A DNA stretch of 64,000 nt from an uncultured archaeon (GTDB lineage Archaea; Thermoproteota; Bathyarchaeia; Bathyarchaeales; Bathycorpusculaceae). The translations under genes and the position numbers were made by a program. The notes beneath the pieces were generated by a model. That model searched no databases and was not told the origin of the DNA. It was given only the letters and a program-made list of their open reading frames with translations. The stretch spans positions 101,969-165,968 of the forward strand of contig CAWALK010000024.1 in the NCBI GenBank assembly GCA_963782915.1, given 5' to 3'. Each line of letters begins with the position of its first letter. Within the stretch, counting starts at the first letter, position 1. Of the stretch, positions 31,576-47,066 are shown one piece after another.

Positions 31576-32826
31576 ATGAAGATTGCCGTTTTCGTCTATG
31601 AATATCCACCTAAAATCGTCGGTGGACTAGGAACATACGCAGCTGAAATCACACGCAAATTCGTCTTAAACGACCATGATGTAACCGTGTTCACAATGAA
31701 CGATGATGCAGGCTCCATGCCCACCAGAGAGATTTGGCGGGGCATAGAAATCCATCGCCCACTCCACATCGACATCTCCGATTCACTACCAGACGTAATC
31801 GCTGAGGACATCCGCAAATGGGGCAGAGGCATCCATTTATTCGGCAAACTAATGGTTTACAATTACCTATCAGCGGCCAAACTGGTTAACGAGTTAATCA
31901 AACGCGAAGGTATGAAATATGACATAGTCGTTGCGCATGATTGGCTCTCAGCTATGGGCGGCATTACAGTCAAGCGTGAAACAGGTTTGCCCTTTGCCTT
32001 CCACGTCCACTCTACCGAGAAAGGCCGCACCATGGGAAACGGCTCAAGCGTAGTGTCCAACATAGAGTTGAGGGCTGGAAAAATGGCGGATATGGTCGTC
32101 ACCGTCTCTTACGCTATGAAAGATGAACTTGTCGGGCTTGGTTTTCCTAAAGAAAAAATCCAAGTCAGCTACAATGGGGTAGACCCACAGAAATACAATC
32201 CAGAAAACATCGCTAAAGAAGACATACAACGGGTACGTGCCAAATATGGCATAAAAGACGATGATTTCATGATACTCTTCCTAGGCAGACTCGTCGGGGT
32301 TAAAGGCGTAGATAAACTCATCATGGCAATGCCCCACATCCTAACAAAAATCCCCAAAGCCAAACTAGTCATAGTCGGCGTCGGCGACCTACAAGAATAC
32401 CTATCAAACCTCACCCAAATCACAAAACAGGGCGACTACATCAAATTCTGCTTCGACTTCATCCCAGAAGAAGAACGCATCATCCACTACGCAGCATGCG
32501 ACGTAGCAGTGTTTCCAAGCTACTATGAACCCTTTGGCATCGTAGCACTCGAAGCCATGAGTATGGAAAAACCCGTTGTCGTCGGTGCAGCAGGCGTAAG
32601 CGGCATGCGAGAAATCGTCATCTGCTGTGGACCAGAACAATGCGGCTACCACATCGACCCAAACAACCCCAGCGACATAGCTTGGGGGGTAACCAACGCC
32701 CTATCAAGCCCCGAGTGGACCAAAACCTTGGGCAAGAACGGACGAAAACGGGTCTTAGCAGAGTTCACATGGAGCAAAATCGCCGAACACACTGTGGATC
32801 TTTACGAAACAATCGCGAAACGGTAA
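31576..32826 (+). CDS. GT4-family glycosyltransferase (glycogen-synthase-like)
   Basis: EYPPKIVGGLG, AHDW, HSTEKGR, GRLVGVKG, EPFGIVALEAM. Confidence 0.92.
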   Translation: MKIAVFVYEYPPKIVGGLGTYAAEITRKFVLNDHDVTVFTMNDDAGSMPTREIWRGIEIHRPLHIDISDSLPDVIAEDIRKWGRGIHLFGKLMVYNYLSAAKLVNELIKREGMKYDIVVAHDWLSAMGGITVKRETGLPFAFHVHSTEKGRTMGNGSSVVSNIELRAGKMADMVVTVSYAMKDELVGLGFPKEKIQVSYNGVDPQKYNPENIAKEDIQRVRAKYGIKDDDFMILFLGRLVGVKGVDKLIMAMPHILTKIPKAKLVIVGVGDLQEYLSNLTQITKQGDYIKFCFDFIPEEERIIHYAACDVAVFPSYYEPFGIVALEAMSMEKPVVVGAAGVSGMREIVICCGPEQCGYHIDPNNPSDIAWGVTNALSSPEWTKTLGKNGRKRVLAEFTWSKIAEHTVDLYETIAKR

Positions 32827-32831
32827 CTCCC

Positions 32832-33446
32832 TTGTCATTTGATTCCGAGCTAAAATGTCGAGTTGCACGGGAAGCCGCTACACTGCTCTATTTTGGAGCC
32901 GAAAAAGAGTACAAACAAGCTAAAGATAAAGCAGCCCAAACACTGGGAACCCACTTTTTACCCTCCAACCTCGAAATCGCCTTGGAGCTGGATAAGATTG
33001 CTGAAGAAAACGAGGGTGAGAAACGTAAGGAGCGTTTGGTTGAGATGCGCAGGGAAGCCTTGGACGTTATGAAGTTGCTGAGCGGTTCTTGCCCTGTTTT
33101 GATAGGCAGCGTTTGGCGGGGCACGATTAAGCAGGGCAGCGACATCGACATCGCCGTCTACACCGATAATCCCGAAGGCACCGTTAACGCGCTTAAAGCA
33201 GGGGGCGTAAAAGTTTCAAAAACCAACTGGACAACGGTGAACAAGAAAGGAGCAACCCTGGAATCCTTCCACATCTACGCCCAAACCCCCGCCAAGCATG
33301 GACTCGAAATCGTCGCGCGTGGCAGAGAGGAAGCAGGCAAGAAACGCAGGTGCGAAACATTCGGCGACGAACTAAAAGGCTTAAACATAAAAGAACTCAC
33401 AAAAATCCTCGAAACCCACCCAACTCAACGGTTTATCCCAACCTAA
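32832..33446 (+). CDS. Pol-beta-type nucleotidyltransferase domain protein
   Basis: VAREAATLLY, KEYKQAK, LPSNLEI, GSVWRG...SDIDI. Confidence 0.82.
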   Translation: MSFDSELKCRVAREAATLLYFGAEKEYKQAKDKAAQTLGTHFLPSNLEIALELDKIAEENEGEKRKERLVEMRREALDVMKLLSGSCPVLIGSVWRGTIKQGSDIDIAVYTDNPEGTVNALKAGGVKVSKTNWTTVNKKGATLESFHIYAQTPAKHGLEIVARGREEAGKKRRCETFGDELKGLNIKELTKILETHPTQRFIPT

Positions 33447-33517
33447 TATTAGGTCAAAAAACTGTTTTTCAGCAAAAAAGCAGATAAACCACGGTTTCAA
33501 ATCATTTTTGATGACTT

Positions 33518-33938
33518 ATGTCTGATGCTTTGGACAAGAAATCTCTCAGGAAAATGTTTCCACACCTCTACAATGAGTTAGAAACGGGAGAAGTCAAAGT
33601 TCCAATTAATGCAGTACGTAAGGATCCCTTGGAGGCTGAAGCAGAAGTTGAGGGGGAAGAATGCGGCTGCGAGGAATGCCATGAACCCGGAAGTCATAGC
33701 TCCATCCACAACTACACCTGATAAACTGCGCCATTTCAACCCGCAGGCTGTTGATTTTCTGCGTCGATGTGACACACAAGTGCAGGCTGAAGAAATCATC
33801 AGTTACTTGCAGAAGAAAGGCGAAATTACAGTGGAGTATGCTTCGGAGTTGCGGTGCCAGTTAAAGAGGGATGGAGTTCGCAGTTTTGGGCCTAAGAAGG
33901 AAGAGTATCATTACTTTAAAGAAGGCGGCCTCTGCTAA
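33518..33938 (+). CDS. DUF2095-like protein; frameshift near 33688
   Basis: KMFPHLYNEL in the first frame, then FNPQAVDFLRRCDT...EIISYL...GVRSFGPKKE. Confidence 0.75.
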
Positions 33939-34118: not shown

Positions 34119-34778
34119 ATGAAAAAAATAACTAAAATACAGGTAACTTTAGCCACTTTATTGCTTACAACCATATTGTTAAGCGTAAGTGCACCACTCT
34201 GTTCAGCTGCTGATTCACCGCAATATATCCTAAGCGCATATGCAGTGGATTCAGCGGGAAATCCCACAGCAGCAGTAATTACTCCATCTGCAAACGAAGC
34301 CGCCATCTACATTGCAGTCACAACACAAATTCCTTCAGACACCAGAGTAACACAATCAGGTTTTAGCTGCTACGCCGACGGTCAACCGAGAGTCAACTTA
34401 AATTCAATCTCTGACCCAATTTCCACAGTGACAAACACAAACGGCTCAAAAACCGCCATCTACCGATTGTCTTTAATGGTGCCAGATAACCTTGCATCGC
34501 CAGCAGCCAGCTTCGAATTCTTCACCAAAGTCACTATAGTAAGCGGCGAAACCGAAACAGAAGTGACCCACACAGCATCTTCAACGCTTCAATACACTGT
34601 AACTGTAGCGCCAACACCAACTCCAACTGCCACAGCAACGGCGACACCTACACCAACAGCCACAATAGAGCCGTCACCAACAGTGCCAGAGTTTCCCTTA
34701 GCAGCAATCAGCATTGCTGTTCTCGTCATAGGAACAACATTTTGTGCTGTTGCTTACAAGAGAAAACAAGCAGAGTAA
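34119..34778 (+). CDS. Secreted protein with Pro/Thr linker and PEF-CTERM sorting signal
   Basis: Signal peptide; PTPTPTATATATPTPT; VPEFP + TM + KRK. Confidence 0.82.
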   Translation: MKKITKIQVTLATLLLTTILLSVSAPLCSAADSPQYILSAYAVDSAGNPTAAVITPSANEAAIYIAVTTQIPSDTRVTQSGFSCYADGQPRVNLNSISDPISTVTNTNGSKTAIYRLSLMVPDNLASPAASFEFFTKVTIVSGETETEVTHTASSTLQYTVTVAPTPTPTATATATPTPTATIEPSPTVPEFPLAAISIAVLVIGTTFCAVAYKRKQAE

Positions 34779-34989
34779 ATGAGAAAGCATTTTCTCCATT
34801 TTTTCTTAATTAATTCAGGCATAGCAAGCTAAGTTTTTTATCGATTGCAATGCCGATATAAATAATATGCATGTTATAAATTTCATAAGACGGCCTTTGT
34901 GTGAAGTGAAAGTTCCCGTATACAAAAGCATCGCCCAAACAAACAAAAAGACGCCTCTCCTTGAACATTCTTTAACATATTAATGAATT

Positions 34990-35085
34990 GCTGAGCCACG
35001 GGACCAAATTAAGAAATAAGCAAACTATAACTGTTCGAAAATTTCAAATCGTAAATTATCTCCAAGAGCCTTCTCAGCCCAGTCT
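34990..35085 (-). repeat. PQQ-gene 3' stem-loop element, copy A
   Basis: GCTGAG...GCAAACTATAA...ATCGTAAATTATCTCC...CTCAGCCCAGTCT shared with copy B. Confidence 0.65.
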
Positions 35086-35138
35086 AACATCAAAATAAAA
35101 ACAAAAAGGGAGGGAAAATAATTCCCAAGGATTTTATT

Positions 35139-37811
35139 TTATGGTCGTTTTCTTAGAGCAAGCAGTAGAACTGCGCCGACGACTGCGATTGCAATGATTA
35201 TGCCGATGACGCCAGGTACGAAGTAGAGGTCAGCCATTGATGCTGGTTGTGTTGGTTGTGGGGTAGCTGTTGCTGCTGCTGGGTCCACTGCGAAAGAGGT
35301 TTGTGCTGATGAGCCATAGTATGCTTTTGAGCCTGTGAAGCTTGCGATGACTGTGTATTTGCCGGTGATGTCTGGTGTCCATTGTAGGCTGTAGGTTCCG
35401 CTTGAGTCGCTGGTTGCTGTTCCGATGTAGCGGTAGTTGCCGTTTGCGTCAACTACAGTGAGGTATACATCGACACCTGTTGCGTTGGTTGGTTTGTTTT
35501 GTTGCATGTAGACGTATTCCATCCATGCCTGTTGACTTGCGTCAGAGACACATGGTACGCCAGTTGGGAAGCGTGCTGCTTGTTCTTCTTGTTGTGTTCC
35601 TGCTGCTATGTCTGTGATGGTGCCTCGGATTACTAGGCTTTGGCCTTGAGTGACTGCGGCTAATGGTGCATCTACTGTTAGTTTGCTTGCGCCTTTACCA
35701 ACTGAGTAGACTTGCATGTCATAGATGTTTAGGTATACGAAGTATCCGTCTGCGACAAGGTCGTTTTGTCCGACGTACATGCCTGAGCCCATTCCTGTGA
35801 GGGTCCAGATTTCTTCGCCTGTGGTTGCGTTCATGCATGCGTATATTCCGCCTTTGTAGAGTGGTTGGTCTGGTGAGTGCTCTGTTGTTCCGATGTAGAC
35901 TTTACCGTCTGCGATGACGTCGATGAATACTGGGTAGTGTCCGTATACTGTGTCTGAGCCTGAGGTTGTGGTGTTGCCTGCGCCGCCGTTGCCATAAGTC
36001 CATAGTAAGTCGCCTGTCTTGTCGTCATAGCAGTAGACTATGCCGTCGTATCCTGCTGCGTAGAGGTTGCCGTATGCACTGAGGGTGTCTCTTCTTAGGG
36101 TGTCCCATTCGCAAACGAGTGGTTCTGATGTCCAGAGGTGGTTTCCGTTGCTGAGGTCGAAGCCGTTGATTTCTAAGGTTTCTTTGTCTTCTGTGACGAA
36201 GGTACCTGCAATTGCATCAACTGCAACGAGTACTCTTGTAACGTTACCGTCTGCTGGTGCATAGGCCTTTGTCCATAGTATGTTGCCTGCTGTATCTTTG
36301 TTTAAGCTGACGCAGGTTATGTTTGCGCCGAAGCTTTCTACTCTTGGGCCAGCTCCTAAGTTGCCTTGCATGAGGAGTAATTTGTCTCCTGCAATGACAT
36401 CTCTGAAGACAGTCCAGCCTTGTCCTTTGATTGATGGTAGGGAAACGTTCCAATCGTACATGCGTATGTCTGCTGCGTTCATTCCGGGGTTTGCTGAGGT
36501 TGGGTACCAGTTGCCTGCGCCGATTTGGCCTGCTGCGAGTTGTTGGGCTCTCGATGAGTTCCATTCTTGTAGGTAGTACTTGGGGGCTGTTGAAGTGCCG
36601 AGGTTGGCCAATGAGTAGATGAGGTATTCGCCTCTTGGGCCTGCTGCTGATGCGCCGTTTGCTGAGTTGGCTGCTAAAGTGGCTGATGCTGCTGATCCGG
36701 AAGGTACGTTGGTCAGGTTAAAGGTTGTGAGCTTACCTGTGCGAGCATCGTATCCTCTCCAGACAGTGCCTTGGCCAGTAACTGATGATGTTGCGATTAG
36801 CAGACCGTTAGGTAAGACACCGTGTTGGTTGCCGTCTTCAAAACCGTATAGGTAACCGAATGATGGTACGCCAACGGTTAGTTGACTGGCATCGATGCGC
36901 CAGAGTTCTTCGCCTGTTTGTAGGTTTACTGCGACGTAGTCTCCTCCGCTACCAGAGTTGCCGTTTGGTTCTTGATAGTAGAGTGTGCCTTGTATGATGA
37001 TTGCGTTGCTGAATCTTGGGTTGTATGAGCTGCCTGTGTAGTATCCTTCGCCTTCGTTTTTGGTTGCGTCTCCACCTACGACACCACCGTTCTGAATTGG
37101 TTTAGTCCACATAACGTGTGAAGTTTCTGGTGCTGCGCCATCGCCTTGGAATCTGCCGTAGCCTGCACCGCCAGTGGATGTTGCGCCTGAGCGGATTTGG
37201 GGTGCGTTTAACCAGTTAGAGGCAATGATGTACCAGTTGCTGTTTTGACCGTTTATGGGTCTTGTCCAGTATTCAGTTGGAAGTGCTGCGCCGTTAGTGA
37301 CTGGTGGGACTTGTTCGTTTGTTACTTTAAGTGTTGTTACAGCTTGAGCAGGAAGATAATGGTCGCCTGTGTAGTTGACGGCATTAGGGCTTGAAGGAAG
37401 CCATGTGTGTATTTGTCCAGGGTAATTGAATGTTAGAGTGTAGTTGCCGACTTTGTCTGGGGTGAATGCATATGCTTGAACACCGGTAGTATCGTCAACA
37501 ACAGCCCAAGTTTGAGTGGTGTTTACACCGTCAGGGTCTGTAATTGTTAACTTGTAATCGTGTCGACGAATGTCATTTGTTACTACTGCACCGGTTATTG
37601 GTATGTCAACCCACACGAAAACGTATACTTCTTGACCGACACCCACTGGATTAGGGGCGGCGGAAACGTAAGCATACGAAGTAATGTCCCATGCGGGTGT
37701 GTGTGCACTAGCAGTCGATAGAGAGGTCAAAGGAATAGCCATAGATATCATGAGAAACAATGCTACAATAGCAAATGTCTTTTTTGATATTTCATTATTT
37801 AGCAATTTCAT
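35139..37811 (-). CDS. Secreted PQQ-like beta-propeller repeat protein 1 with C-terminal Ig-like domain and TM anchor
   Basis: Signal peptide, PNPVGVGQ, LPTEYWTRPI, repeated D-x2-TG-x3-W motifs, TM + RKRP. Confidence 0.9.
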   Translation of the reverse strand: MKLLNNEISKKTFAIVALFLMISMAIPLTSLSTASAHTPAWDITSYAYVSAAPNPVGVGQEVYVFVWVDIPITGAVVTNDIRRHDYKLTITDPDGVNTTQTWAVVDDTTGVQAYAFTPDKVGNYTLTFNYPGQIHTWLPSSPNAVNYTGDHYLPAQAVTTLKVTNEQVPPVTNGAALPTEYWTRPINGQNSNWYIIASNWLNAPQIRSGATSTGGAGYGRFQGDGAAPETSHVMWTKPIQNGGVVGGDATKNEGEGYYTGSSYNPRFSNAIIIQGTLYYQEPNGNSGSGGDYVAVNLQTGEELWRIDASQLTVGVPSFGYLYGFEDGNQHGVLPNGLLIATSSVTGQGTVWRGYDARTGKLTTFNLTNVPSGSAASATLAANSANGASAAGPRGEYLIYSLANLGTSTAPKYYLQEWNSSRAQQLAAGQIGAGNWYPTSANPGMNAADIRMYDWNVSLPSIKGQGWTVFRDVIAGDKLLLMQGNLGAGPRVESFGANITCVSLNKDTAGNILWTKAYAPADGNVTRVLVAVDAIAGTFVTEDKETLEINGFDLSNGNHLWTSEPLVCEWDTLRRDTLSAYGNLYAAGYDGIVYCYDDKTGDLLWTYGNGGAGNTTTSGSDTVYGHYPVFIDVIADGKVYIGTTEHSPDQPLYKGGIYACMNATTGEEIWTLTGMGSGMYVGQNDLVADGYFVYLNIYDMQVYSVGKGASKLTVDAPLAAVTQGQSLVIRGTITDIAAGTQQEEQAARFPTGVPCVSDASQQAWMEYVYMQQNKPTNATGVDVYLTVVDANGNYRYIGTATSDSSGTYSLQWTPDITGKYTVIASFTGSKAYYGSSAQTSFAVDPAAATATPQPTQPASMADLYFVPGVIGIIIAIAVVGAVLLLALRKRP

Positions 37812-37870
37812 AACTTTTTTTTCTCCGTTTTATAGTCTAATCAATGGTTGATAAAACGCTAATAAGCCTC

Positions 37871-37887
37871 ACTCACCTATTGTGAGT
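37871..37887. promoter_or_regulatory. Palindromic operator ACTCAC-N5-GTGAGT upstream of PQQ-like gene 1
   Basis: Same motif at 41293 and 45389, each abutting a TATA-like box. Confidence 0.75.
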
Positions 37888-38022
37888 ATAACGATTGTTT
37901 GATCCAAGAGCAGATTCGATCAAAGAACCAAAAATAACCACGTAAAGTAGTATTCAATACTTAAATTTCAAGAATAAATGACCAAGGTTATAAAAAAATA
38001 TTTTTCGTCAAGTTGTGGGTTT

Positions 38023-38126
38023 GCTGAGGCTCTGGACCAAATTAAGGAGAAAGAGCAAATGCAAAAGCTCTCTCACATACTTCCTGGGCAGGCAGCACGT
38101 GAACCGAACCAGAACCCATTCAGCCC
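38023..38126 (-). repeat. Stem-loop element, copy C
   Basis: GCTGAGGCTCTGG...CCAGAACCCATTCAGC terminal inverted repeat; left arm GGACCAAATTAAG shared with copy A. Confidence 0.6.
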
Positions 38127-38188
38127 CTTTATTTTCAATTCCTTTTTCGAAAACAGCATCATTCGGTAATTAGCCAATAATAAAGGTC

Positions 38189-38401
38189 CTAAACATTTTT
38201 AGTCTCCTTCACACGTTTCACTAATACTTTAAAATCGACAATTTCACCAATAAGCGACTTATCGACCGTAACCTGAATCCTACCATACCGATGCTCCTTA
38301 CCACATACTCTAATAACATGCGGTTTAATCTCAATAGATTCGAATTGAATTATTTCAGATGCTTTGCTATCGTCGTGTTTCAGATATAATTCCTCCCCCA
38401 A
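38189..38401 (-). CDS. Small AT-rich hypothetical protein between stem-loop elements B and C
   Basis: 70-aa ORF; YGRIQVTVDKSLIG suggests a small beta-rich fold; start uncertain. Confidence 0.45.
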   Translation of the reverse strand: MGEELYLKHDDSKASEIIQFESIEIKPHVIRVCGKEHRYGRIQVTVDKSLIGEIVDFKVLVKRVKETKNV

Positions 38402-38458
38402 ATTGCTGAGGCGGGCGCTGGTTTATCCTCAGAAAAATATTGTATTGCGCTAGGGTTT

Positions 38459-38570
38459 GCTGAGGCCCCGGGCGTGTTTTTTCTAGGAGAAAAGAAAAAA
38501 TGCAAACTATAAATCACGATGATTGCAAACATCGTAAATCATCTCCCGGGAACCTACTCAGCCCCAGTCT
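38459..38570 (-). repeat. PQQ-gene 3' stem-loop element, copy B
   Basis: GCTGAGGCCCCGGG...CCCGGGAACCTACTCAGC outer stem; inner hairpin ACGATG-N8-CATCGT. Confidence 0.7.
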
Positions 38571-38628
38571 GAACGCATATATTGGAACTAAAAAAGGGAG
38601 GGAAGAGAATTTCATTTTGTCTTCGCCT

Positions 38629-41234
38629 TTATGGATGTTTTCTTAGCACAAGTAGGGTCAATGCGATGCTGATTATGACAGCTATGAATAGTCCTGCGAT
38701 TGCGGGTAGGAAGTATAGGTCAGCCATTGATTGTGCTTGTGTTGGTTGTGGTGTTGCTGTTGCTGGTGCGGGGTCTATGTTGAATGCTGTTGTTGCTGTT
38801 GAACCCCAATAGCCGTTAGTGCCTGCGAATGTTGCGTAGAGTACGTATTTGCCTACAATGTCAGGTGTATAGACAAAGTTGTAAGAGCCTGAGGCGTCAG
38901 TCATTGCTGTTCCGATTGTGCGGTAGTTGCCGTTAGAATCGACTACATTGAGTGTTACTTGGACTCCTGTGAAGTTTGTTGGGCAAGCTGCTTGCTGGTA
39001 TACGTATGCCATCCATTCAGTCATGACTGAGTCTGCTGCTACTGGAACACCTTGTGGGAAGCGTGCTGATTGTTCGTCTTGTGTTGTGCCGCTTGCTATG
39101 TCGGTTACTTTGCCTTGGATAAGCACTGTGGTTCCGAATGTTGAGGATAGTGTTGGTGCTTCAACGGTTGTTTGGCTTGGTCCTCTGCCGACTGTGTAGA
39201 TTCTGTTGTCATAGCCGTTGAGGAAGTTGTTGTAGCCATCTGCCATTGCGCCTGTTGGTGGGCTTTGTGCTTCGCCGCGTACGCCTCTGAGTTCCCAGAC
39301 TTGGGAGCCGTCTGTTGCGTTGACTGCCCAGAACATTGATGCTTTGTAGATTGGTGTTGTTACTGTGTGTTCTGTGACTGATAGGTAGACTACTCCGTCA
39401 CCGATTGCGTATGTGGAGACTGGGTAGTGTCCAGGTACCTGTAAGCCGCTGTAGGTGCTGTTTCCTTCACCGCCATTACCGAAAGTCCATAGCAATTTTC
39501 CGTCTGTTAGGTCATAGCAGTAGAGTATGCCAGACATACCGCTGACGTAAAGTTTACCATAAGCGTATGCTGCGCCTGCTTGGTTTCCGCCTGCGTTATA
39601 GCCGCTTGCATAGAAGTTTAGTGCGTCTTGGTTACCGTCTGTTGTCCAGAGTTGAGCGCCTGTGGCCATGCTGTAGGCTGTGTACTTCATTGTTTCTTTC
39701 GATTTTTCAACGAATACACCTGCTGATTTGTCAGAGCCGCTGTAAGAGATGCTTTGGTTACCGCTTGGTGCAGCTATTGTTTTTGTCCATTGGACTGTAC
39801 CGACTGTGCTTACGTCAGGGTTTAGGTTGACTCTATAGTATGTCCATGAGAAGCTAGTTCCACCTATTGATGGATAGGAACCGCTTCTGCAGATTGCGAA
39901 TTCATCATCATATGCGATAAGTATTGAGCTAGCTGCACTTGTTATGCCGTCGAATTTTACAGAAACGTTGAAGTCATAACGGGCTGCTGTGCTTGCGTCA
40001 ACTGTAGTTGTGATTGATGGAGTACTTCCCCAAGTCCATAGATTTGTTGAGTTCCATCGGGCTAAGTACCAATTTGGATTGGTTGTGGTACCGTAGTTTT
40101 TCAATGAGTAGACTAAGTATTCGCCGTTTGGTCCTACTTCTGTTGTTCCTGGTGGGACATTGGTAGCGTTGAATAGGAAATTACCAGTGTAAGCATCGTA
40201 TACCATCCATGTTACTGGAGTTGTTATTCCCATGAATGAAGCGCCTGTGATTGCGACTAGCATTGGGTTGAATGTGCCGTGTTGGTTAGGATTCTGGACA
40301 TCGTATACAAGAGCATGTGATAGCGCTGGTACATCGGTTCTACGCCAGACTTCTTGGCCAGTGCGTAAATCTACGCAGACTGTTGCGCCTGCGACTGCAC
40401 CGATGTATGAGACTGGTTCAGTGTAGTATAATTTTCCAGCCACGATGATTGGGTTCTTGTATCTGCCGAGGTATGCTGTACCCTCAAAGAATGTTGCGCC
40501 TGCGATTGTGGATGTTTGGTTGCCGCCGACTACTCCACCGTCTTGGATTGACTTGGTCCACATTACGTGGGGAGTCTTTGATCCGATGGCATCGCCCGGG
40601 TAGCAGCTTCCATATCCTTGGTTAGTTTGGCCTGCATTTGGGCTACCGAGCCAATTTGATGAAATTGAGTACCATTGGTCGTTTTCACCAAAGATGGGTC
40701 GTGTCCAGTATTCTGTGGGTAAAGCTGTGCCGCCAGTGGTGGATACTATTGGTTCTTCTGTTACGGTTAGGCTGCAGGTTGCATTGCTGGGCATGTAATA
40801 GTCGCCGTTGTATGCACCGCTCCATGTGTATGTTTGGCCTGGGAAGTTAAAGGTAAAGTTGTATACACCGACTTGGTCGGGTGTGAAGGTATAGCTTTGT
40901 GAAGAAGTGGTGTCTTGTACTATATCCCATGTTTTGGTTGTAACGTCACCGTTGGGTGCAGTCATGGTTAATTGAAGTTGTGGAATCGGATGTCGTTTCC
41001 ATTCATCAATGCTCCGCTGATGGTTTTATCGAGCCACATGTAAACGTATGCTGTTTGACCAACGCCTATTGGGTTCATTGGAGTTTCTAAGTAGGCATAG
41101 GTTGGAATGTTCCATATGGGTGTGTGTGCACTTGTTGCTTGCAGTGTCACCATTGGAATAGTCATTGAGAGTGCGAGAAGGATTGCGATTGCAGTTATCG
41201 TCTTTTTTGAGAATTCAAAATTTTTCGAAATCAT
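38629..41234 (-). CDS. Secreted PQQ-like beta-propeller repeat protein 2; frameshift near 40968
   Basis: ORFs 40968-41273 and 38629-40965 are collinear with paralog 1. Confidence 0.88.
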
Positions 41235-41292
41235 GTTGTATTTCTCCATTTTTTTCTTTCGTATAGGTGTCATTAAATCGCTAATAAGGCTC

Positions 41293-41309
41293 GCTCACCG
41301 ATTGTTAGT
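41293..41309. promoter_or_regulatory. Degenerate operator GCTCAC-N5-GTTAGT upstream of PQQ-like gene 2
   Basis: Flanked by the same CGCTAATAAG context as the 37871 copy. Confidence 0.7.
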
Positions 41310-41417
41310 ACTAAAGGTCGTTTTTTTAACCGTGTTTAATTCTTAATCAGGAAACACCAAAAATTGAACGTAATAGCATAAACTAAAATAAGGGTGAATT
41401 GAAACACAATTAAGCAT

Positions 41418-42107
41418 ATGGACCCTATCCTTGCAACTGAACTGATTTCAATAGATGTTACCGTAATAGTTCTATGCGGTATACTACTGAAATTCATGAT
41501 AAAGCCATATCAGGTTACCGGAGAGAATAGGTATCTTGGTCTACCATTAGGGTTCGGCGTTCTCGGTTTAACGTATTTTATCGGCATTATTTCGGTTATC
41601 GGTTTTTTTGAACCCATACCCTATTTTGATGCTATAAATTGGCTTCAGCTTTCTTTGAGGTCATTCGCATTTGCTTTCTTAGCCTTAACATATTACTTTT
41701 CGAAGAAGCCCGCTCAGAAAAGCAGGATATGGTGGAATATCGCATTAAGTGTATTGATAGTTGCTTTGCTACTATCTTTTGCAATAGTCGCTGTCATTCC
41801 ACAGTTCGGAGTATCGGCTTATCGGGTAAGTGGTGCTTATACTCGAGTTTTTAATGTGCTTTGCCTCGCATTCATTTCGTCATATACAGTTAGAAGTTAC
41901 TTGAAGAAACGTGACCCTGCAACTGGGGGGAGCGCATTTGGGTACATTCAACTTGCAATAAGCCAGTTCCTATTGATATTCTGGTTTACTTATTGGGATT
42001 ATAATGTATTCTGGACAGCAATGGTATTCCTACTATCCGGATTATCTTTCTTCATATTCGTTTCTTGCAATGCATTTTATCGGAAAAAGAGGCAGGAGTT
42101 TAATTGA
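41418..42107 (+). CDS. Multi-pass (about 7 TM) membrane protein, putative sensor
   Basis: About seven hydrophobic segments; KPYQVTGENRYLGLPLGF; overlaps next gene by 4 nt. Confidence 0.75.
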   Translation: MDPILATELISIDVTVIVLCGILLKFMIKPYQVTGENRYLGLPLGFGVLGLTYFIGIISVIGFFEPIPYFDAINWLQLSLRSFAFAFLALTYYFSKKPAQKSRIWWNIALSVLIVALLLSFAIVAVIPQFGVSAYRVSGAYTRVFNVLCLAFISSYTVRSYLKKRDPATGGSAFGYIQLAISQFLLIFWFTYWDYNVFWTAMVFLLSGLSFFIFVSCNAFYRKKRQEFN

Positions 42108-42379
42108 AGAAGCTAAGAAGGGACCGACTGAAAATTTATGGCGACCTCTTAGCTATACTTGTTGATGAATCAAAAAAAGAAAAATTTACCCTAACCCGAG
42201 TTCAGGTGAGACTTAAAGTTCCTTTTGACCGCATGAAAAAATATATCGCCGAGTTAAGTGCCTTGGGGTTAATTGATAATGAAGAGTCTCTTAAACTTAC
42301 AGAAAAAGGTAAAAAATACCTAAGAGAATACGAGAAAGTTCTTGATTTTATGGAAGACATGGGTATAGGCTACGAATAG
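42104..42379 (+). CDS. Small winged-helix DNA-binding protein
   Basis: RRDRLKIYGDLL...TRVQ...YIAEL...GLI...LTEKGKKYLREY. Confidence 0.88.
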   Translation: MKKLRRDRLKIYGDLLAILVDESKKEKFTLTRVQVRLKVPFDRMKKYIAELSALGLIDNEESLKLTEKGKKYLREYEKVLDFMEDMGIGYE

Positions 42380-42551
42380 CCAGTTTCAGTTTAGTTATCG
42401 TTTAGCCGATTTTATTTTGATTTCAGGTTTTTAATCTGTTTTGCTTGTGGTTTGCTTCCATCCGTTTGCAACTACGATATTCCCATTATTTTAACTAAAA
42501 CAAAAAGCATCAAAATATCCAAAATCATATTTTTAACAAGTCATAACTTGA

Positions 42552-42642
42552 TTACTGAAATTTCGGGTATCAAGAGTAAAACAAAACTGCAATTGACCAA
42601 ATGATTAAGAACGGTGTAAATAAAACCCAGAACCACTGAGCC
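42552..42642 (-). repeat. Degenerate PQQ-gene 3' element, copy D
   Basis: TTACTGAAATTTCGGG...TGCAA...GTAAAT...CCCAGAACCACTGAGCC at the same position relative to the stop codon as A and B. Confidence 0.4.
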
Positions 42643-42702
42643 TCAATTGGCTATCATTAAAAAACAAAAAAGGAAGGGAAGATTGATTTTTAATTTATTG
42701 CC

Positions 42703-45328
42703 TTATGGTCTTTTTCTTAGTACTAATACTAAGACAACGCCAACTATGATGATAGTAGCGATTATGCCGAATCCTAGAGGTAGTAAATATTGATCTGCCA
42801 TTGATGCTGTCGGTGTTGCTGTTGGTGTGGTTGTTGCTGCTTCTCCAACTACTATTGCGGTTTCTGCGGTTGAACCATAGTATGAGCCGGAGCCAGTGAA
42901 GCTTGCTAAGATAGTGTATTCGCCTGGTACTTGTGGAGCGAATGCTAGCTTGAAGTTGCCGCTTGTGTCACTTGTGGTTGTGCCAACGTTGTAATAGTTG
43001 CCGTTAGGGTCGACTACGCTTATGGTTACTTCAACACCGGTTCCGTTTGTTGGTGCTGGTTGACCCATGTAGAGGTATTCCATCCATGCGGCTTGGCTTG
43101 CGTCAGAGACTGCTGCTACGCCATTGGGGAATCTTGCTGCTTGTTCGGTCTGTTGTGTGCCTACTGATATGTCGGTGACCATGCCTTCCACTAAGACTTT
43201 GTCGCCGAAGGTTGAAACTTTCGGTGATGCTGTCACTGTGGTTTGGCTTGGGCCTTTAGCGACTGCATAGATTTGGTTGTCGTAGTAGTTGTAGTAGACT
43301 AGTGTTCCGTCTGCCTAGAATCTGTGTGCTTAGACCTTGACCGCCGGTTTGTCCTGACCAGCCGAGCATTTTGTAGATTTGTTCACCTGTGGTTGCGTTT
43401 AGAGCGTAGATGCTGTAGCCTTTGTATAGTGGGCTGTTTGGTGAGTGTTCGTTGTTGAATGCGTAGACTTTGCCGTCTGCGATTGCTCCGATGAATGTTG
43501 GGATTAAGCCCCAAGATGTGTCGACGCCGCTGTCTGTGTTGTTGAATTTCCAGAGTGTGTTGCCGGTCTTTGCGTCAATACAGAAGATTTCTCCACCGAA
43601 ACCTTGTGTATAGAGGTTACCGTATGCAGTAACGCATCTTTGACCTGCACCTGAGCCACTGCTGAAAAATTGCATTGGTCGTACAGCTAGGTCGGTTGTC
43701 CATAGGCTGCTTCCGTCAGCTAAACTATAGCCTTGATATTGCATATCTTCAGCTGTAGTTGTAGTCCAAACACGGTTTACTGGGTCTATTGGGCCGAGGT
43801 TGAGTGTCATGTTGCTCGATGGTGCGGTAAATGATTTCTTCCAGATTAGGCTGCCTTTGTTGCTGTCTGCTAAGCTTAGTGTCCATACTTGGTATGGATT
43901 AACTGTGCCTCTTAATGATAGGACACCTGGTGCTATGTTTGGTGTTGTACCGAATAGTATGTCGCCTGGTAGTATGTACTGTATTGTTGGGTTTTGTGTT
44001 GTTAGACTGCCTGTTAAGTCTGCTGTAATGCTAACGTTCCATGAGTATGCTGTGCTTGCGTTGATGACTTTGCCGACTGGTCTGAACTGTAGGTAGTTAG
44101 TGCCTGATGTTGGGGTCCCTAGTTGTACGCCTGTACCTACTGGTACTCCGTTTGCACTTGTCCAGTTCCAGAGTGCTAGCCAACCTGATTTTGCTGTGGT
44201 GTTGTAGTTGAGTATGTATTTGACGATTTCACCTTGGCTTGTGTATGCGACTGTGCCTCCTGCGGGTACATCGGTGATGTTGAATAACCAATTGCCAGTT
44301 AGTGAGTCCCATGCGACCCAAGTGGTGCCAACTGCTTGCCATAGGTAGCCGTTTGGAACTACGCCGTGCTGGTTTGGTGATTCATAGCAGTAGAGTTCGC
44401 CGAATGATGGGTTGATGTTGTTGTTTGTCCAGAGGATTTCGCCTGTGCGTAAGTCTCTGCATACATATGCGCCTCCGCCGGTTGCTGTTGTGCTAACTGC
44501 GTCGCTTAGAGGTGCTTTGTAGTAGAGTCTGCCGCCTACGATGAGTGCGTTTTGGAATCTGCCTTCATAAGAACCGCCTGAATAGTAGGTTGCGCCGGTG
44601 ATACCTGTGTTTATTCCGCCGACGACTCCTCCGTCTTCAAGTGGAGTTGTCCACACAATGTGTGAGCTTTCTGGGCCGGTTCCGCCTTGCTGCCATAGGC
44701 TCATGCCGCTTTGTTGGAATGTTCCTAAGTAAGCACTGCCGCTGCCTAGCCAGTGTGATCCGAGTGTGTACCAGTTGTAGTCTTCACCGAAGATTGGTCT
44801 TGTCCAATATTCAGTTGGTAGTGGTGAGTCTGGTGTTGCAGAAACTGGGTCTTGTTGGACGGTTAGGGTTGCTGTTGCACTGGTGCCTAGGAAGGTTACG
44901 TTTGCCCATGCTGCGCTTCCGCCTTGTGCGGTGGTCCATGTGTATTTTTGGTCGGGGTAAGTGAAGGTAAAGTTGTATGTTCCGGTCATGGTTGGTGTGT
45001 ATGAGGTTGATTGGACACCTGTTGTGTCTGCAATTCTAGCCCATGTTTTTGTTTCTTTGGTGCCGTCGGGTGCTGTGATGACTAATTGGTAGTCATGTCT
45101 TCTGATGTCGTTGGCTTCTGATGCGCTAGGTAGTGGTACGTCGATCATCATAGCGATGTAGGTGGTTTGGCCTACACCGACTGGGTTAGGTTCCACAATA
45201 AGGTATGCAAATGATGCCATTTGGCCTGAGGTTTGTGCGTTAGTTGGGGCTACTGTAACGAGTGTTGTAGCGATAGTCAATAGTAGAAAAGTTGCGATTA
45301 AAATTGACTCTTTTCCCTTAATATTCAT
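42703..45328 (-). CDS. Secreted PQQ-like beta-propeller repeat protein 3; frameshift near 43313
   Basis: ORFs 43256-45328 and 42703-43236 are collinear with paralogs 1 and 2. Confidence 0.88.
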
Positions 45329-45388
45329 TTTTTTTCTCTCTCCTTATGTTGTAACTATAAAGTTTGCAGCCCGAATTATTAAGCCTTT

Positions 45389-45405
45389 ACTCACCTATAG
45401 TGAGT
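45389..45405. promoter_or_regulatory. Palindromic operator ACTCAC-CTATA-GTGAGT upstream of PQQ-like gene 3
   Basis: Perfect 6-bp arms, next to CTTAATAA TATA-like box on the minus strand. Confidence 0.75.
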
Positions 45406-45630
45406 GCTAAATGGGAAGAACCCACTAAGAGAGAACGTAATTATTTGCCATAGGCTTTTTGGGGCTTGGTGTTGAAATCTCTTCAACCGCCCTAATTACT
45501 TCCGCTCAGGATTACAGACAAGACTGCTACAAATGTACACTTTCAACAAACCATCACCCACAACTGTTGAGTAAACACAAAGCTCAATCAAAGAATGCAC
45601 GTTACTTTAACGGTGTACACTGCAACTGTC

Positions 45631-45672
45631 ATTCTATAAATAAGGGAGGGGGTAGGTCCACAGAGCAACAAA
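45631..45672 (-). repeat. Dispersed ~45-bp intergenic motif, copy 3
   Basis: Reverse complement TTTGTTGCTCTGTGGACCTACCCCCTCCCTTATTTATAGAAT. Confidence 0.5.
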
Positions 45673-45785
45673 AGCTCAGTCATCCAGAAGCATCACTAAA
45701 ATAAGCAATTCCATACGACTTTCCAGCCAAAGAACAACTAAAGGCCCAAAAAGCAAAGTTTACAAAAATCTTATATGAAGAGCCG

Positions 45786-46454
45786 ATGAACTATGAGGCT
45801 ATGGCTCCCAAAAATCGAAACCGAAAACCAACCATGCACTCAAAGAAGCCAATAAAACAGAACTCTAACAAGTCCATGTGGATTGCATTAGCCGTAGTTG
45901 CAGTAGTAATCATCGTTTTTGGCGCTTTAGCATTATCTGGGCAATTAAGCCAACATCCTGAACCATTAACAGTTCAACCAACCAAAGTTTTGCTGCAAAC
46001 AACTGCAGGCAACATAACCGTCGATTTAAGAACTGACAAACCAATCACATCAACGAACTTCATAAACCTGGTTAAAGCAGGCAAATATGATGGCACAACC
46101 TTCCATCGAACAGTCGCTGGCTTTATGATTCAAGGCGGACAAGTCAACGGCGTCGCAACTATAAACGATGAAATAGGCACCAACAACCGAAACACTAACT
46201 ATACAATAGCAATGGCAAAAACCAATAATCCTAACTCTGCATCAAGCGGATTCTTCATAAACGTGGAAGATAACGGATTGAAATTTGCACCGAGCTTTGA
46301 CCAAACATACACAGTGTTTGGCAATGTAATCTCGGGCCAAGACGTAGTGGATGCAATCGCTAATGCACCAGCAACGCAGAACCCGAATATGAAAAATGAA
46401 ATTAGCATTCCAGTAAATCCAGTCACAATCCTACACGCAACAATCGTACTTTAA
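45786..46454 (+). CDS. Membrane-anchored cyclophilin-type PPIase
   Basis: N-terminal TM; YDGTTFHR, FMIQGG, IAMAK, FFINV, YTVFG. Confidence 0.9.
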   Translation: MNYEAMAPKNRNRKPTMHSKKPIKQNSNKSMWIALAVVAVVIIVFGALALSGQLSQHPEPLTVQPTKVLLQTTAGNITVDLRTDKPITSTNFINLVKAGKYDGTTFHRTVAGFMIQGGQVNGVATINDEIGTNNRNTNYTIAMAKTNNPNSASSGFFINVEDNGLKFAPSFDQTYTVFGNVISGQDVVDAIANAPATQNPNMKNEISIPVNPVTILHATIVL

Positions 46455-46547
46455 GAAGCTAATTTTAGCTTCTAACTTTTCTTTAATTTCACTCTCTGGC
46501 AATAGGCATAAATGCCCATATTCTAATTGGTTATTTGGGCAATAATT

Positions 46548-47066
46548 ATGGCAGAAAAAAAAACCACTCAACCCTCAGCCACACCGGCTGCAGATGAATA
46601 TACTAACGGAACAAAAGTCCTATTGACCACATCAATGGGCGGCATAACCATCCAACTACGAAACGACATGCCAATAACAACCGCCAACTTCAAAAACTTG
46701 GTTCAAAAGGGAACCTTTAACGGTACAATCTTCCACAGAATCATCAAAGGATTCATGATTCAAGGCGGAGACCCAACCGGAACCGGATACGGCGACCCAT
46801 CAATCCCTGACATCAAAGACGAATTCACACGCAAAAACCGCAACGACAGAGGCACCATAGCAATGGCAAATGCTGGCCCAAACTCAGGAAGCAGCCAATT
46901 CTTCATCAACCTAGTCAACAACAACTTCTTAGACTCAAAGCACCCACAATTCGGCAAAGTTGTCGCTGGCATGGATGTTGTCGACAAAATAGCAGCTGTC
47001 TCAACAAACCGAAACGATAAACCACAAAAAGACGTAATAATAGTCAATGCAACAATCGTGCCATAA
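46548..47066 (+). CDS. Cytoplasmic cyclophilin-type PPIase
   Basis: FHRIIKGFMIQGGDPTGTG, MANAGPNSGSSQFFI, LDSKH. Confidence 0.94.
   Translation: MAEKKTTQPSATPAADEYTNGTKVLLTTSMGGITIQLRNDMPITTANFKNLVQKGTFNGTIFHRIIKGFMIQGGDPTGTGYGDPSIPDIKDEFTRKNRNDRGTIAMANAGPNSGSSQFFINLVNNNFLDSKHPQFGKVVAGMDVVDKIAAVSTNRNDKPQKDVIIVNATIVP

Follow-up and report, generated by a model that had tools for sequence, protein, structure and literature searches.

The stretch analysed here, called the window throughout, is 64,000 nucleotides (nt) of contig CAWALK010000024.1 from an uncultured archaeon of the Bathycorpusculaceae (Bathyarchaeia), and coordinates are window positions unless a contig label (C5, C12, C18 or C22) precedes them. 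The assembly to which it belongs, G000, is 3.28 Mb in size and 93.5% complete. Between positions 35139 and 45328, the minus strand of the window carries three paralogous genes in the same orientation, P1, P2 and P3, which encode large β-propeller proteins. Between P2 and P3, an oppositely directed pair of genes encodes a 229-residue protein with seven transmembrane helices (7TM) and a 91-residue winged helix-turn-helix (wHTH) protein; this embedded pair had already been recognized in the original prediction, which was made from the sequence alone. The prediction had also described three co-oriented paralogs of about 870–890 amino acids (aa). Their number and orientation are as it stated, and only P1 is an open frame (890 aa), since P2 and P3 are each interrupted by a frameshift; read through the breaks, P2 would encode about 881 aa, likely from the second ATG (MEKYN...), and P3 about 874 aa. 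The motifs that it listed are present as well: LPTEYWTRPI and EQ.ARFP.GV in all three proteins, PNPVGVGQ in P1 and P3 (MNPIGVGQ in P2), and a C-terminal transmembrane (TM) helix followed by RKRP or RKHP in the array proteins. Its picture of conserved ends flanking divergent middles applies only mildly, the identity of P2 and P3 to P1 being 43% in the propeller, 55–59% in the C-terminal domains and 43–51% in the N-terminal domain.

The only alignable stretch upstream of P1, P2 and P3 is ACTCAC-N5-GTGAGT, which is followed after 4–6 bases by CTTATTA (CTTAATA in P3), so that a palindrome and a TATA-like box do precede each gene, as had been claimed. A Shine-Dalgarno (SD)-like GGAG and then a run of A lie between this box and the ATG. 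The palindrome CTCAC-N5-GTGAG spans 15 bp, and together with the TATA-like motif it makes up 27 nt located about 45 nt ahead of the start codons. When the pattern CTCAC-N3-6-GTGAG-N2-8-CTTAWTA was searched for with at most one substitution, four sites were found in the whole of G000, three of which are the promoters of P1, P2 and P3. The fourth, at C22:220861, lies 99 nt ahead of a gene with a TrmB domain, which itself precedes another member of the propeller family. A looser search for the core upstream of all 31 family loci of G000 returned the motif at the three array genes and at none of the other 28; two further loose core matches upstream of family loci have no palindrome. A check named in the original prediction, whether other paralogs genome-wide carry the same operator, turns out half against it: the operator is missing from the other 28 loci of this genome, and it does recur at homologous arrays in relatives. 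Among 41 genomes of the genus, the exact pattern occurs at 28 sites in 18 genomes and the reversed control pattern at none in the 41. A family gene is directly downstream at 24 of these 28 sites, other genes follow at two, and no open reading frame (ORF) was found at the remaining two; the first long ORF with an ATG begins 14–118 nt downstream, typically 40–50 nt, with one at 410 nt. Several relatives possess arrays of two to four family genes, each consisting of operator, gene and 3′ element. The sites lie on different contigs in G000 and in two relatives (G010 and G038), which points to a trans-acting factor, and a palindrome that adjoins a TATA-like box some 45 nt ahead of the start codon is in keeping with a promoter-proximal site of the archaeal kind. 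The suggestion that the three genes are co-regulated is thus plausible, given that the same 27-nt motif stands before all three, is nearly absent elsewhere in the genome and is conserved in the genus.

The wHTH protein matches the Pfam family HTH_45 (PF14947; 40.8 bits against 25.5, E 2.2e-10, residues 5–83), and in a profile search of the PDB it aligned over nearly its full length with Sso10a of Sulfolobus (1r7j, E 0.002), a protein of similar size and of the same Pfam family, which is its closest solved relative. Sso10a is a dimeric winged-helix protein whose C-terminal helix makes the dimer. Different from Sso10a, the 91-residue protein is encoded by a gene translationally coupled to that of a 7TM protein and is tied to one specific palindrome. 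Homologs of it occur in 27 of the 41 genomes of the genus, including all 18 that carry the operator, and the operator is found in none of the 14 genomes without the wHTH gene. In 17 of 30 wHTH loci a palindrome (at most one mismatch) lies 771–848 nt ahead of the IYGDLL motif of the wHTH gene, which is the promoter of the upstream 7TM gene. A wider sample of 77 pair loci was drawn from named Bathyarchaeia assemblies independently of the 41-genome set. The wHTH gene is directly behind the 7TM gene in 73 of the 77, and the palindrome (at most one mismatch) is present within 260 nt upstream in 55 (42 of them exact); among the control stretches, 1 of 77 has it. Divergently oriented family genes occur within 700 nt upstream at 58 loci, 46 of which have the palindrome as well. 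The 7TM–wHTH pair and the family gene therefore have a common bidirectional promoter, in which a single palindrome is flanked by TATA-like boxes on both sides; this is a classic mark of a local regulator that controls itself.

Three to four 7TM–wHTH pairs are present in G000, each next to a family gene; two of the paralogous ones occupy C12:256642-257616 and C5:27865-28841. Family loci are found within 1.5 kb of all five wHTH genes and of 6 of the 14 TrmB-like genes, the sequence that close to a family locus making up about 5% of G000 (C5/C22 duplicates counted twice). At the paralogous pairs, differing palindrome-like sequences were seen by eye at the same position before CTTATTA or CTTAATA, which hints that regulator and operator may be diverging together. 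Such variant palindromes are located at C12:257617-257790 and C5:28842-28926, one example being TTCAC-GCAGT-GTGCA.

The 229-residue 7TM protein has no Pfam match at E ≤ 0.01 and belongs to no named family in Pfam, NCBIfam or Atlas. Its match to MASE3 is weak (E 0.006), and in Atlas it falls among unnamed archaeal clusters, with HisKA_7TM, at 0.83, as the nearest named set. A complex of the 7TM and wHTH proteins was predicted from our own alignments of 16 orthologs each, together with three controls. The median score was 0.66, in comparison with 0.00 for the best of the three controls, a level that 116 of the 157 solved complexes attain, as do 2 of the 215 mismatched pairs; because our own alignments were used, these calibration counts hold only roughly. 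The runs share at least 80% of contacts, and the predicted local distance difference test (pLDDT) score of the partner is at least 73. In the predicted interface, the conserved C-terminal helix of the wHTH protein (residues 75–90) packs against residues 26–42, 91–96, 156–173 and 215–225 of the 7TM protein. These contact residues belong to alternate loops and to the C-terminal tail, as one would expect of a single, cytoplasmic face of a 7TM protein. The two proteins are thus predicted to bind each other. Given that the C-terminal helix makes the dimer in Sso10a, one may speculate by analogy that docking would compete with dimerization and DNA binding of the wHTH protein.

On the 3′ side of the genes, a C/T-rich run ending in T5-8 is found within about 40 nt of nearly every family locus in G000, and the pyrimidine tract that had been predicted after each array gene is indeed there as an oligo-T tract past all three stops, plausibly an archaeal terminator. 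Beyond it follows an element of about 130 nt, of which nhmmer detects 16 copies in G000: ten start 42–47 nt past the stop codon of a family gene (10 of the 31 loci), one lies in the P1–P2 spacer and five elsewhere. In an unbiased sample from G003, a complete genome of the same genus, two of three copies are behind family genes. Thirty-three distinct copies from G000 and its relatives were aligned with MAFFT without structure fitting. From this alignment RNAalifold gave a 13-bp closing stem, in which GCUG...GGCUCUGG pairs with CCAGAGCC.CAGC, with compensatory changes in 8 of the 13 pairs and 95.3% of cells paired; none of 500 shuffles reached the observed values, and slid controls were at most 48% paired. 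G-U pairs (about 20 cells) exceed A-C (5 cells) in this stem, which favours an RNA read on the strand of the gene. Rfam 15 at its gathering thresholds gives two tRNAs only in the window, and at E ≤ 1 the region 34800–45800 yields two weak snoRNA-like chance matches elsewhere and none on the element. A stem-loop had been ascribed to every unit of the array; it is present behind P1 and P2, with a second copy in the spacer between them, and behind P3, where nhmmer detects no element, a decayed 5′ half is all that is left.

Our guess is that the element acts in the stabilization or processing of the 3′ end. What speaks against such a role is that the element lies behind the oligo-T tract and so may not be on the mRNA at all, that P3 has lost it, and that 5 of the 16 copies are not behind family genes. 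Three other ideas about the element were dropped. Pairing of its pyrimidine tract with the purine-rich SD leader of its own gene has a mean RNAduplex energy of −15.6 kcal/mol, in comparison with −15.7 for the leaders of other genes and −12.8 ± 3.6 for shuffled elements, and as own and cross pairing are practically equal, nothing points to pairing specific to the gene. A small ORF antisense to the element does not keep its frame from copy to copy, as judged by eye. An array of integron-like cassettes with attC sites, suggested by the stem-loop behind the genes, was set aside, as the genes have promoters of their own, the sequence of the element is conserved and its G-U pattern points to an RNA; no integrase search was made.

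Each of the three paralogs encodes, in order, a signal peptide, an immunoglobulin (Ig)-like domain, an eight-bladed β-propeller, further Ig-like domains and a C-terminal TM anchor. The propeller matches PQQ_2 (PF13360) with 45.6 bits in P1, 55.5 in the P2 fragment and 49.3 in the P3 fragment, the cut-off being 27.6 and the E values in the array 1e-12 to 1e-15 (8.7e-12 for P1); the other Pfam matches are weak Ig-like ones and Beta-prop_ACSF4. An AlphaFold2 model of P1 built with 63 homologs (pLDDT 74, predicted template-modelling score 0.71) consists of a signal-peptide helix (10–30), a β-sandwich (about 40–165), an all-β domain (about 216–707), a helical and β-sandwich region (709–843) and a C-terminal helix (859–887), with the invariant LPTEYWTRPI in a low-confidence linker. 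Residues 216–707 are modelled as β throughout, as in an eight-bladed propeller. Foldseek placed BamB first (E 3e-14), followed by tetrathionate hydrolase and YxaL; the VIA structure comparison placed YxaL first (Z 16.7, root-mean-square deviation 5.1 over 314 residues) and also returned BamB (Z 13.9), eight-bladed WD40 and designer propellers, with residues 191/230–707 aligned at Z 13–17. YxaL, which is secreted by Bacillus velezensis, and BamB are binding or scaffold proteins and, like the array proteins, eight-bladed propellers of PQQ-like repeats with no known cofactor. The array proteins share only 13–19% identity with them, are about 2.5 times longer, and differ by their added N- and C-terminal Ig-like domains, their TM anchor and their roughly 30 paralogs. 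With its signal peptide, Ig stalks, propeller, Thr/Pro linker and TM anchor, this architecture is most naturally read as that of a surface glycoprotein anchored in the membrane in type-I fashion, and N-x-S/T sequons number 11 in P1 and 10–11 per protein. The location at the cell surface that had been proposed is consistent with the P1 model and appears plausible.

The N-terminal domain, when folded alone (pLDDT 91.8), is a generic sandwich of the Ig, macroglobulin or PKD kind with a best Z of 10.6. Cleavage of the predicted signal peptide at A-x-A|H-T/N-P-x-W would leave His as mature residue 1 in 13 of the 30 readable copies of G000, namely P1 (residues 37–40, window 37703-37692), P2 and 11 other paralogs. 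A copper-binding "histidine brace" was considered for this residue and is not supported. His1 does not vary among 24 N-domains, all of them chosen because they have it, and there is no second invariant His. An AA10-type chitin-binding domain ranks 40th in Foldseek with the N-domain (E 0.016), and CopC and YcnI are absent among the structural matches listed. Contigs from public RNA-library runs (shares ≤ 0.21) cover parts of P1, P2 and P3, and give little or no cover over the spacers, the 7TM–wHTH operon and the 3′ elements; such contigs cannot show transcription, transcript ends or levels.

The frames of P2 and P3 need to be considered before the array is read as three working genes. In P2 the first frame ends ...HNFN-stop and the next resumes LTMTAP, where P1 has HDYKLTIT; in P3 a surplus G within the GG at 43315-43314 separates ...QILG from ADGTLVYY. 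The family hidden Markov model (HMM) is continuous over both breaks (5–84 and then 84–878 in P2; 4–663 and then 675–878 in P3), and apart from the single bases nothing else has been lost from either gene. P2 and P3 could be true pseudogenes, or genes switched by frameshifts so that the array expresses only a single paralog at any moment: two of the three array genes are out of frame in the assembly, 14 of the 31 family loci in G000 are in pieces (11 in 2–3 pieces, 3 in 5–7) and 17 in one open frame, and the copies listed from relatives are nearly all open. As a control for indels, 20 evenly spaced 20-kb stretches of G003 yielded 189 stop-to-stop ORFs of at least 250 aa, from which 6 family-HMM ORFs were set aside and 117 non-family ORFs were kept whose best tblastn match in the present assembly is at least 45% identical. 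As many as 26 of these 117 are broken up between frames in G000, one of them a 1283-aa protein with about 90% identity. Coverage is about twofold in 4 of the 26, which could be tandem paralogs, and spot checks showed clean frame switches with contiguous query coordinates. Examples of such frame breaks are found at C18:176886-180741 and C22:257196-259218. Furthermore, two near-identical contigs of the same assembly differ by 24 and 37 gaps over aligned blocks of about 14 kb and 13 kb, neither break lies inside a long homopolymer or slippery site, and four outside contigs, two in each of two RNA-library runs from one study, are without one letter at position 43314, which is the extra G. The outside contigs speak to the break in P3 only. 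The two single-base frameshifts are thus most likely assembly errors. Programmed frameshifting or phase variation was rejected as the principal explanation on the strength of the assembly-wide control and the outside contigs, and we regard true loss or switching of P2 and P3 as very unlikely. In an assembly with so many single-base indels, the 14 fragmented family loci cannot be called pseudogenes, and any finding in this genome that is based on frameshifts needs such a control.

Of the 7999 candidates that were scored against P1, at least 1682 are relatives with E ≤ 0.001. Those with names are "PQQ-binding-like beta-propeller repeat protein" of Candidatus Bathyarchaeota, and orthologs are up to 89% identical. 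The 31 family loci of G000 are spread over 13 contigs; two or three of these loci are on C5, a second copy of part of C22. Searches started from P2 recovered the family in 12 of 12 further genomes of the genus, and in none of 8 genomes from other families of the order. The same protein family in the same lineage has been described by Nesbo et al. (PMC11697101), the accessible portion of whose paper reports 24–46 such genes per Bathy-6 genome, with Sec signals, Ig-like domains and within-genome duplication, and proposes that they are pyrroloquinoline quinone (PQQ)-dependent dehydrogenases acting on lignin; a PqqE-like radical SAM gene and proteomic detection are given there as well. Loci of the complete metagenome-assembled genome of that study (PMC11697101) occur among the relatives fetched by us. 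If that hypothesis held, the array proteins would be extracellular enzymes that oxidize lignin-derived compounds. Apart from that proposal itself (PMC11697101), the PQQ_2 repeats, a marginal match to the large subunit of methanol dehydrogenase in the PDB (E 7.8e-4, about 45 residues only), obtained with a profile built from 63 members of the family, and the many radical SAM/SPASM genes in G000 are in its favour, and incomplete recovery of the genome together with possible scavenging of the cofactor leaves it some room.

The hallmarks that could be tested are all missing. None of the quinoprotein dehydrogenase models of NCBIfam and Pfam match P1 at E ≤ 0.01; the only NCBIfam matches are two BamB models with 19.5 and 18.7 bits, far below cut-offs of 285 and 423. 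Searches of G000 for pqqB (TIGR02108) were empty, as were those for pqqC, both with TIGR02111, which is silent in the controls too, and with PF03070, which is positive in 6 of 14 control genomes. The PqqE model TIGR02109 gave sub-threshold radical SAM matches only (best 134 bits against 381), and did likewise in 14 of 14 control genomes. An adjacent Cys-Cys pair, whose disulfide over the cofactor is a hallmark of the methanol and alcohol dehydrogenase type, exists neither in P1 (Cys at 500, 567, 594, 659 and 754) nor in the P2 and P3 fragments examined. PQQ dehydrogenases are absent among the 50 structural matches listed, which does not exclude one, and BamB, YxaL, WD40 proteins and tetrathionate hydrolase lead them; the best of these neighbours, YxaL and BamB, are non-catalytic. 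The original prediction, that these are not PQQ dehydrogenases, is borne out as far as the searches go: they gave no support for quinoprotein chemistry, and we consider the published role improbable for this array. More distant PQQ-like propeller ORFs surround a radical SAM/SPASM gene (C12:98411-99460) at C12:96091-102296, a neighbourhood that differs in type from the array.

A structural role is a further alternative, in which the array would supply alternative lattice subunits of a surface layer (S-layer) or coat. A signal peptide, Ig-like domains, a Thr/Pro linker, a TM anchor and 10–11 sequons are typical of archaeal surface glycoproteins, and the N-domain resembles, among many β-sandwiches, the S-layer domain 7ptp (Z 8.5) and the PKD domain of the propeller-bearing surface-layer fragment of Methanosarcina mazei (1l0q, Z 8.2). 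The latter is, like the array proteins, an archaeal surface protein that combines a β-propeller with Ig-like (PKD) domains; its propeller, with seven blades of YVTN repeats, is unlike the repeat family of the array. A β-propeller S-layer protein has moreover been reported in Dehalococcoides and S-layer proteins have been predicted in Bathyarchaeia, according to the part of the source available (10.1101/2024.05.28.596244). However, Z values of 8–10 are in the generic range for β-sandwiches, and about 30 paralogs per genome with local dedicated regulators are more readily understood as inducible accessory proteins than as a single lattice protein made in abundance. An S-layer function for the array proteins therefore seems unlikely to us.

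What, then, binds the palindrome? A TrmB-family sugar-sensing regulator could do so, the 7TM–wHTH pair being merely another member of its regulon. TrmB-type regulators bind palindromic sites, and in the TrmB and TrmBL1 regulons of Thermococcales a palindromic motif is placed relative to the B recognition element (BRE) and the TATA box. The array is like those regulons in its palindrome by a TATA box and its dispersed gene set, and genes with TrmB domains adjoin the family here too, both at the fourth site and in the 6 of 14 cases near family loci given above. The gene at the fourth site, C22:220987-221760, indeed has a TrmB domain (PF01978, 53.7 bits against 25.6, E 1.9e-14), with its protein far under the cut-offs of the TrmB, TrmBL1 and TrmBL2 equivalog models. 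The site itself lies between this gene and an aIF5A-like gene, and in a relative the syntenic site beside the aIF5A-like gene holds a 7TM–wHTH pair instead. In most genomes with the operator, a close ortholog of the TrmB-like gene is lacking (best non-self identity 45%, typically about 30%), for which reason we rank this gene as a target rather than as the binder, whereas the wHTH orthologs are 54–70% identical and track the operator. The motif also differs in sequence from that of TrmB/TrmBL1, and the candidate binder that tracks it best is not a TrmB protein. A TrmB-type binder is accordingly an unlikely explanation in our judgement, and the wHTH protein is the candidate for the operator-binding regulator.

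Several points weigh against this assignment and against the regulon as a whole. The wHTH protein scores 31.3 bits with the NCBIfam model Sso10a_fam (NF053610), whose cut-off is 60, and Sso10a proteins have also been discussed, in the portion of the literature at hand, as chromatin or architectural proteins. The palindrome is absent at up to one mismatch from 22 of the 77 pair loci, 12 of which still have a divergent family gene. The genomes compared are kin, so that co-occurrence counts overstate their independence, and the association of pair and palindrome may in part reflect physical linkage and shared descent. The score of the complex is the model's own confidence rather than a measurement, and the terms operator and TATA are labels taken from position and conservation. 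In a quick, unfinished tree, finally, the operator-bearing genes do not form one clade (8 label changes, matched by 42 of 500 shuffles). The operator as a mere clade marker was rejected on the same tree, two rows of which have very long branches and may not belong to the family. In that tree, P1 groups with clear orthologs from three relatives, P2 falls in a sister group, and P3 stands beside a paralog without operator.

The shared flanks might also be functionless leftovers of tandem duplication, for the genes are tandem paralogs, duplication would copy their flanks, and recombination of tandem paralogs is seen elsewhere in G000. The stretch C5:1-32213 is 98% identical to C22:179478-207732, which is without 3.8 kb containing the end of one propeller paralog, a 7TM–wHTH pair and most of the next paralog; this difference is due to strain variation or else to unequal crossing-over of the tandem paralogs. 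The C22 junction lies inside a 117-nt stretch common to the conserved 3′ ends of both genes, which indicates that tandem paralogs recombine through their conserved C-terminal modules. Against leftovers, the proteins are only 43–59% identical by domain, yet the 27-nt motif is near-identical between the paralogs and across 18 genomes, its distance to the 7TM–wHTH operon is fixed, and the 3′ element has compensatory base changes. Mere remnants of duplication are hence a most improbable account of the flanking motifs, and a maintained regulon is the reading with which we continue.

The coordinates of the features are collected in Table 1. Two flanking genes had been named in the original prediction. 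The membrane-anchored cyclophilin is there, divergent from P3 and with a hydrophobic N-terminal stretch seen in the translation. The "PEF-CTERM" protein on the other side is a more qualified case: it has no Pfam match, and with the PEF-CTERM model TIGR03024 it scores 13.9 bits (E 0.05; 16 of the 25 model positions covered) where 23 would be needed, although PEF, a TM segment and a KRK tail are readable in its translation. Directly behind the membrane-anchored cyclophilin gene lies a second one (46527-47066, plus strand; Pro_isomerase E 2.2e-49). At the other end, 31576-33938 holds genes for a GT4 glycosyltransferase (31576-32826), a protein with a nucleotidyltransferase domain and a DUF2095 protein; a link of the glycosyltransferase to surface-protein glycosylation may or may not exist. 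The spacer between P1 and P2 is 817 nt long, and about 300 nt of unique sequence (38129-38431) separate its two 3′ elements. A possible 58-aa ORF there (38205-38380, minus strand) has no Pfam match, and the region may be a remnant of a lost gene.

Table 1. Positions in the window of the array genes, their putative control elements and the flanking genes
Feature	Position	Strand	Remarks
P1	35139-37811	-	Intact open frame, 890 aa
P2	38629-41273	-	Two frames, 101 aa and 778 aa; one base missing near 40966-40970
P3	42703-45328	-	Two frames, 690 aa and 177 aa; one G extra at 43314/43315
Putative operator of P1: CTCACAATAGGTGAG + TGAGG + CTTATTA	37860-37886	-	48 nt from ATG
Putative operator of P2: CTAACAATCGGTGAG (one mismatch) + CTTATTA	41282-41308	-	In divergent promoter of P2 and the 7TM-wHTH operon
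Putative operator of P3: CTCACTATAGGTGAG + TAAAGG + CTTAATA	45377-45404	-	48 nt from ATG
7TM membrane protein gene, 229 aa	41418-42107	+	ORF between P2 and P3
Sso10a-like wHTH gene, 91 aa	42104-42379	+	HTH_45; start overlaps 7TM stop
Pyrimidine/oligo-T tract after P1 stop	35091-35118	-	Seen in sequence
Pyrimidine/oligo-T tract after P2 stop	38590-38607	-	Seen in sequence
Pyrimidine/oligo-T tract after P3 stop	42659-42680	-	Seen in sequence
3′ element behind P1	34957-35092	-	nhmmer E 5.8e-20; 46 nt past stop
3′ element behind P2	38432-38583	-	nhmmer E 4.5e-33; 45 nt past stop; best copy in genome
Second, shorter 3′ element in P1-P2 spacer	38010-38128	-	nhmmer E 4.8e-12
Decayed 3′ element behind P3	42571-42650	-	5′ half by eye against consensus; 3′ closing arm gone
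Secreted protein, Thr/Pro-rich linker, PEF + TM + basic C-terminus	34119-34778	+	ORF translation
Membrane-anchored cyclophilin	45786-46454	+	Pro_isomerase PF00160, E 1.9e-36, 126.1 bits against 21.7; divergent from P3

Taken together, we lean, with some reserve, towards the view that this tandem array of membrane-anchored surface propellers of a Bathy-6-type archaeon and its embedded 7TM–wHTH operon form one operator-controlled regulon, and that the propellers are not quinoproteins. Results of the analysis are the anatomy, conservation and co-occurrence of the parts, the covariation in the stem and the docking as predicted. What we infer is that the wHTH protein binds DNA and that a signal is sensed, and likewise which way regulation goes and what the propeller proteins do biochemically. 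The wHTH protein would bind the palindrome as a dimer and in this way govern the surface-protein genes jointly with the operon that encodes it. By its C-terminal helix it would also dock on the cytoplasmic loops of the 7TM protein, and a cue from the membrane or envelope, perceived by the 7TM protein, would set the amount of regulator free for DNA. Behind the genes, the oligo-T tract would be followed by the structured RNA of about 130 nt, probably acting on the stability or processing of the transcript 3′ end. The propeller proteins themselves would most likely be non-catalytic, inducible binding or scaffold proteins at the cell surface, serving in substrate capture or adhesion. In principle this resembles the membrane sequestration of a transcription regulator known from E. 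coli, where the glucose transporter PtsG holds Mlc: a DNA-binding regulator that is itself soluble is kept at the cytoplasmic face of a polytopic protein, and a signal at the membrane sets expression. The protein families are unrelated, however, the organism belongs to another domain of life, and the interaction here is only predicted.

Beyond the array, we put forward more tentatively, as a possibility that we rate below the regulon itself, that 7TM and wHTH proteins make up an undescribed signalling module found throughout Bathyarchaeia, in which the sensor would hold the regulator by the C-terminal helix of the latter and release it to the operator, variant pairs would choose which propellers are displayed, and the 3′ RNA would add a second layer. 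In literature searches we found no account of the operator, the 7TM–wHTH pair or the 3′ RNA element, and these three appear to be undescribed; the accessible text of the Bathy-6 study reads the proteins as PQQ enzymes and makes no mention of any of them (PMC11697101). To call the whole an undescribed system, for which the original prediction took it as a candidate, is nevertheless too strong for the proteins, whose expansion is on record in the part of that paper available (PMC11697101), and holds for the control architecture as far as the literature searched is concerned.

What does the array mean for the organisms that carry it? Bathyarchaeia of the Bathy-6 group are abundant, uncultured archaea of soils and sediments. 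The most expanded family of this group has so far been read, from the name of its Pfam family, as lignin-acting PQQ enzymes, a reading that is weakened here. In its place the family gains a control logic that can be tested, made up of an operator, a 91-residue protein as the candidate regulator and a membrane protein as its predicted partner, all kept over dozens of genomes, to which a covariation-supported RNA element outside the RNA family libraries is added. If the sensor–regulator model is true, the inducing cue of each propeller protein would be a route to its ligand; if 7TM and wHTH proteins do act as a module throughout Bathyarchaeia, the "PQQ" expansion would be an inducible, sensor-coupled repertoire of surface receptors encoded by about 30 genes. 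The array offers a first handle on the control of a large and puzzling family of surface propellers.

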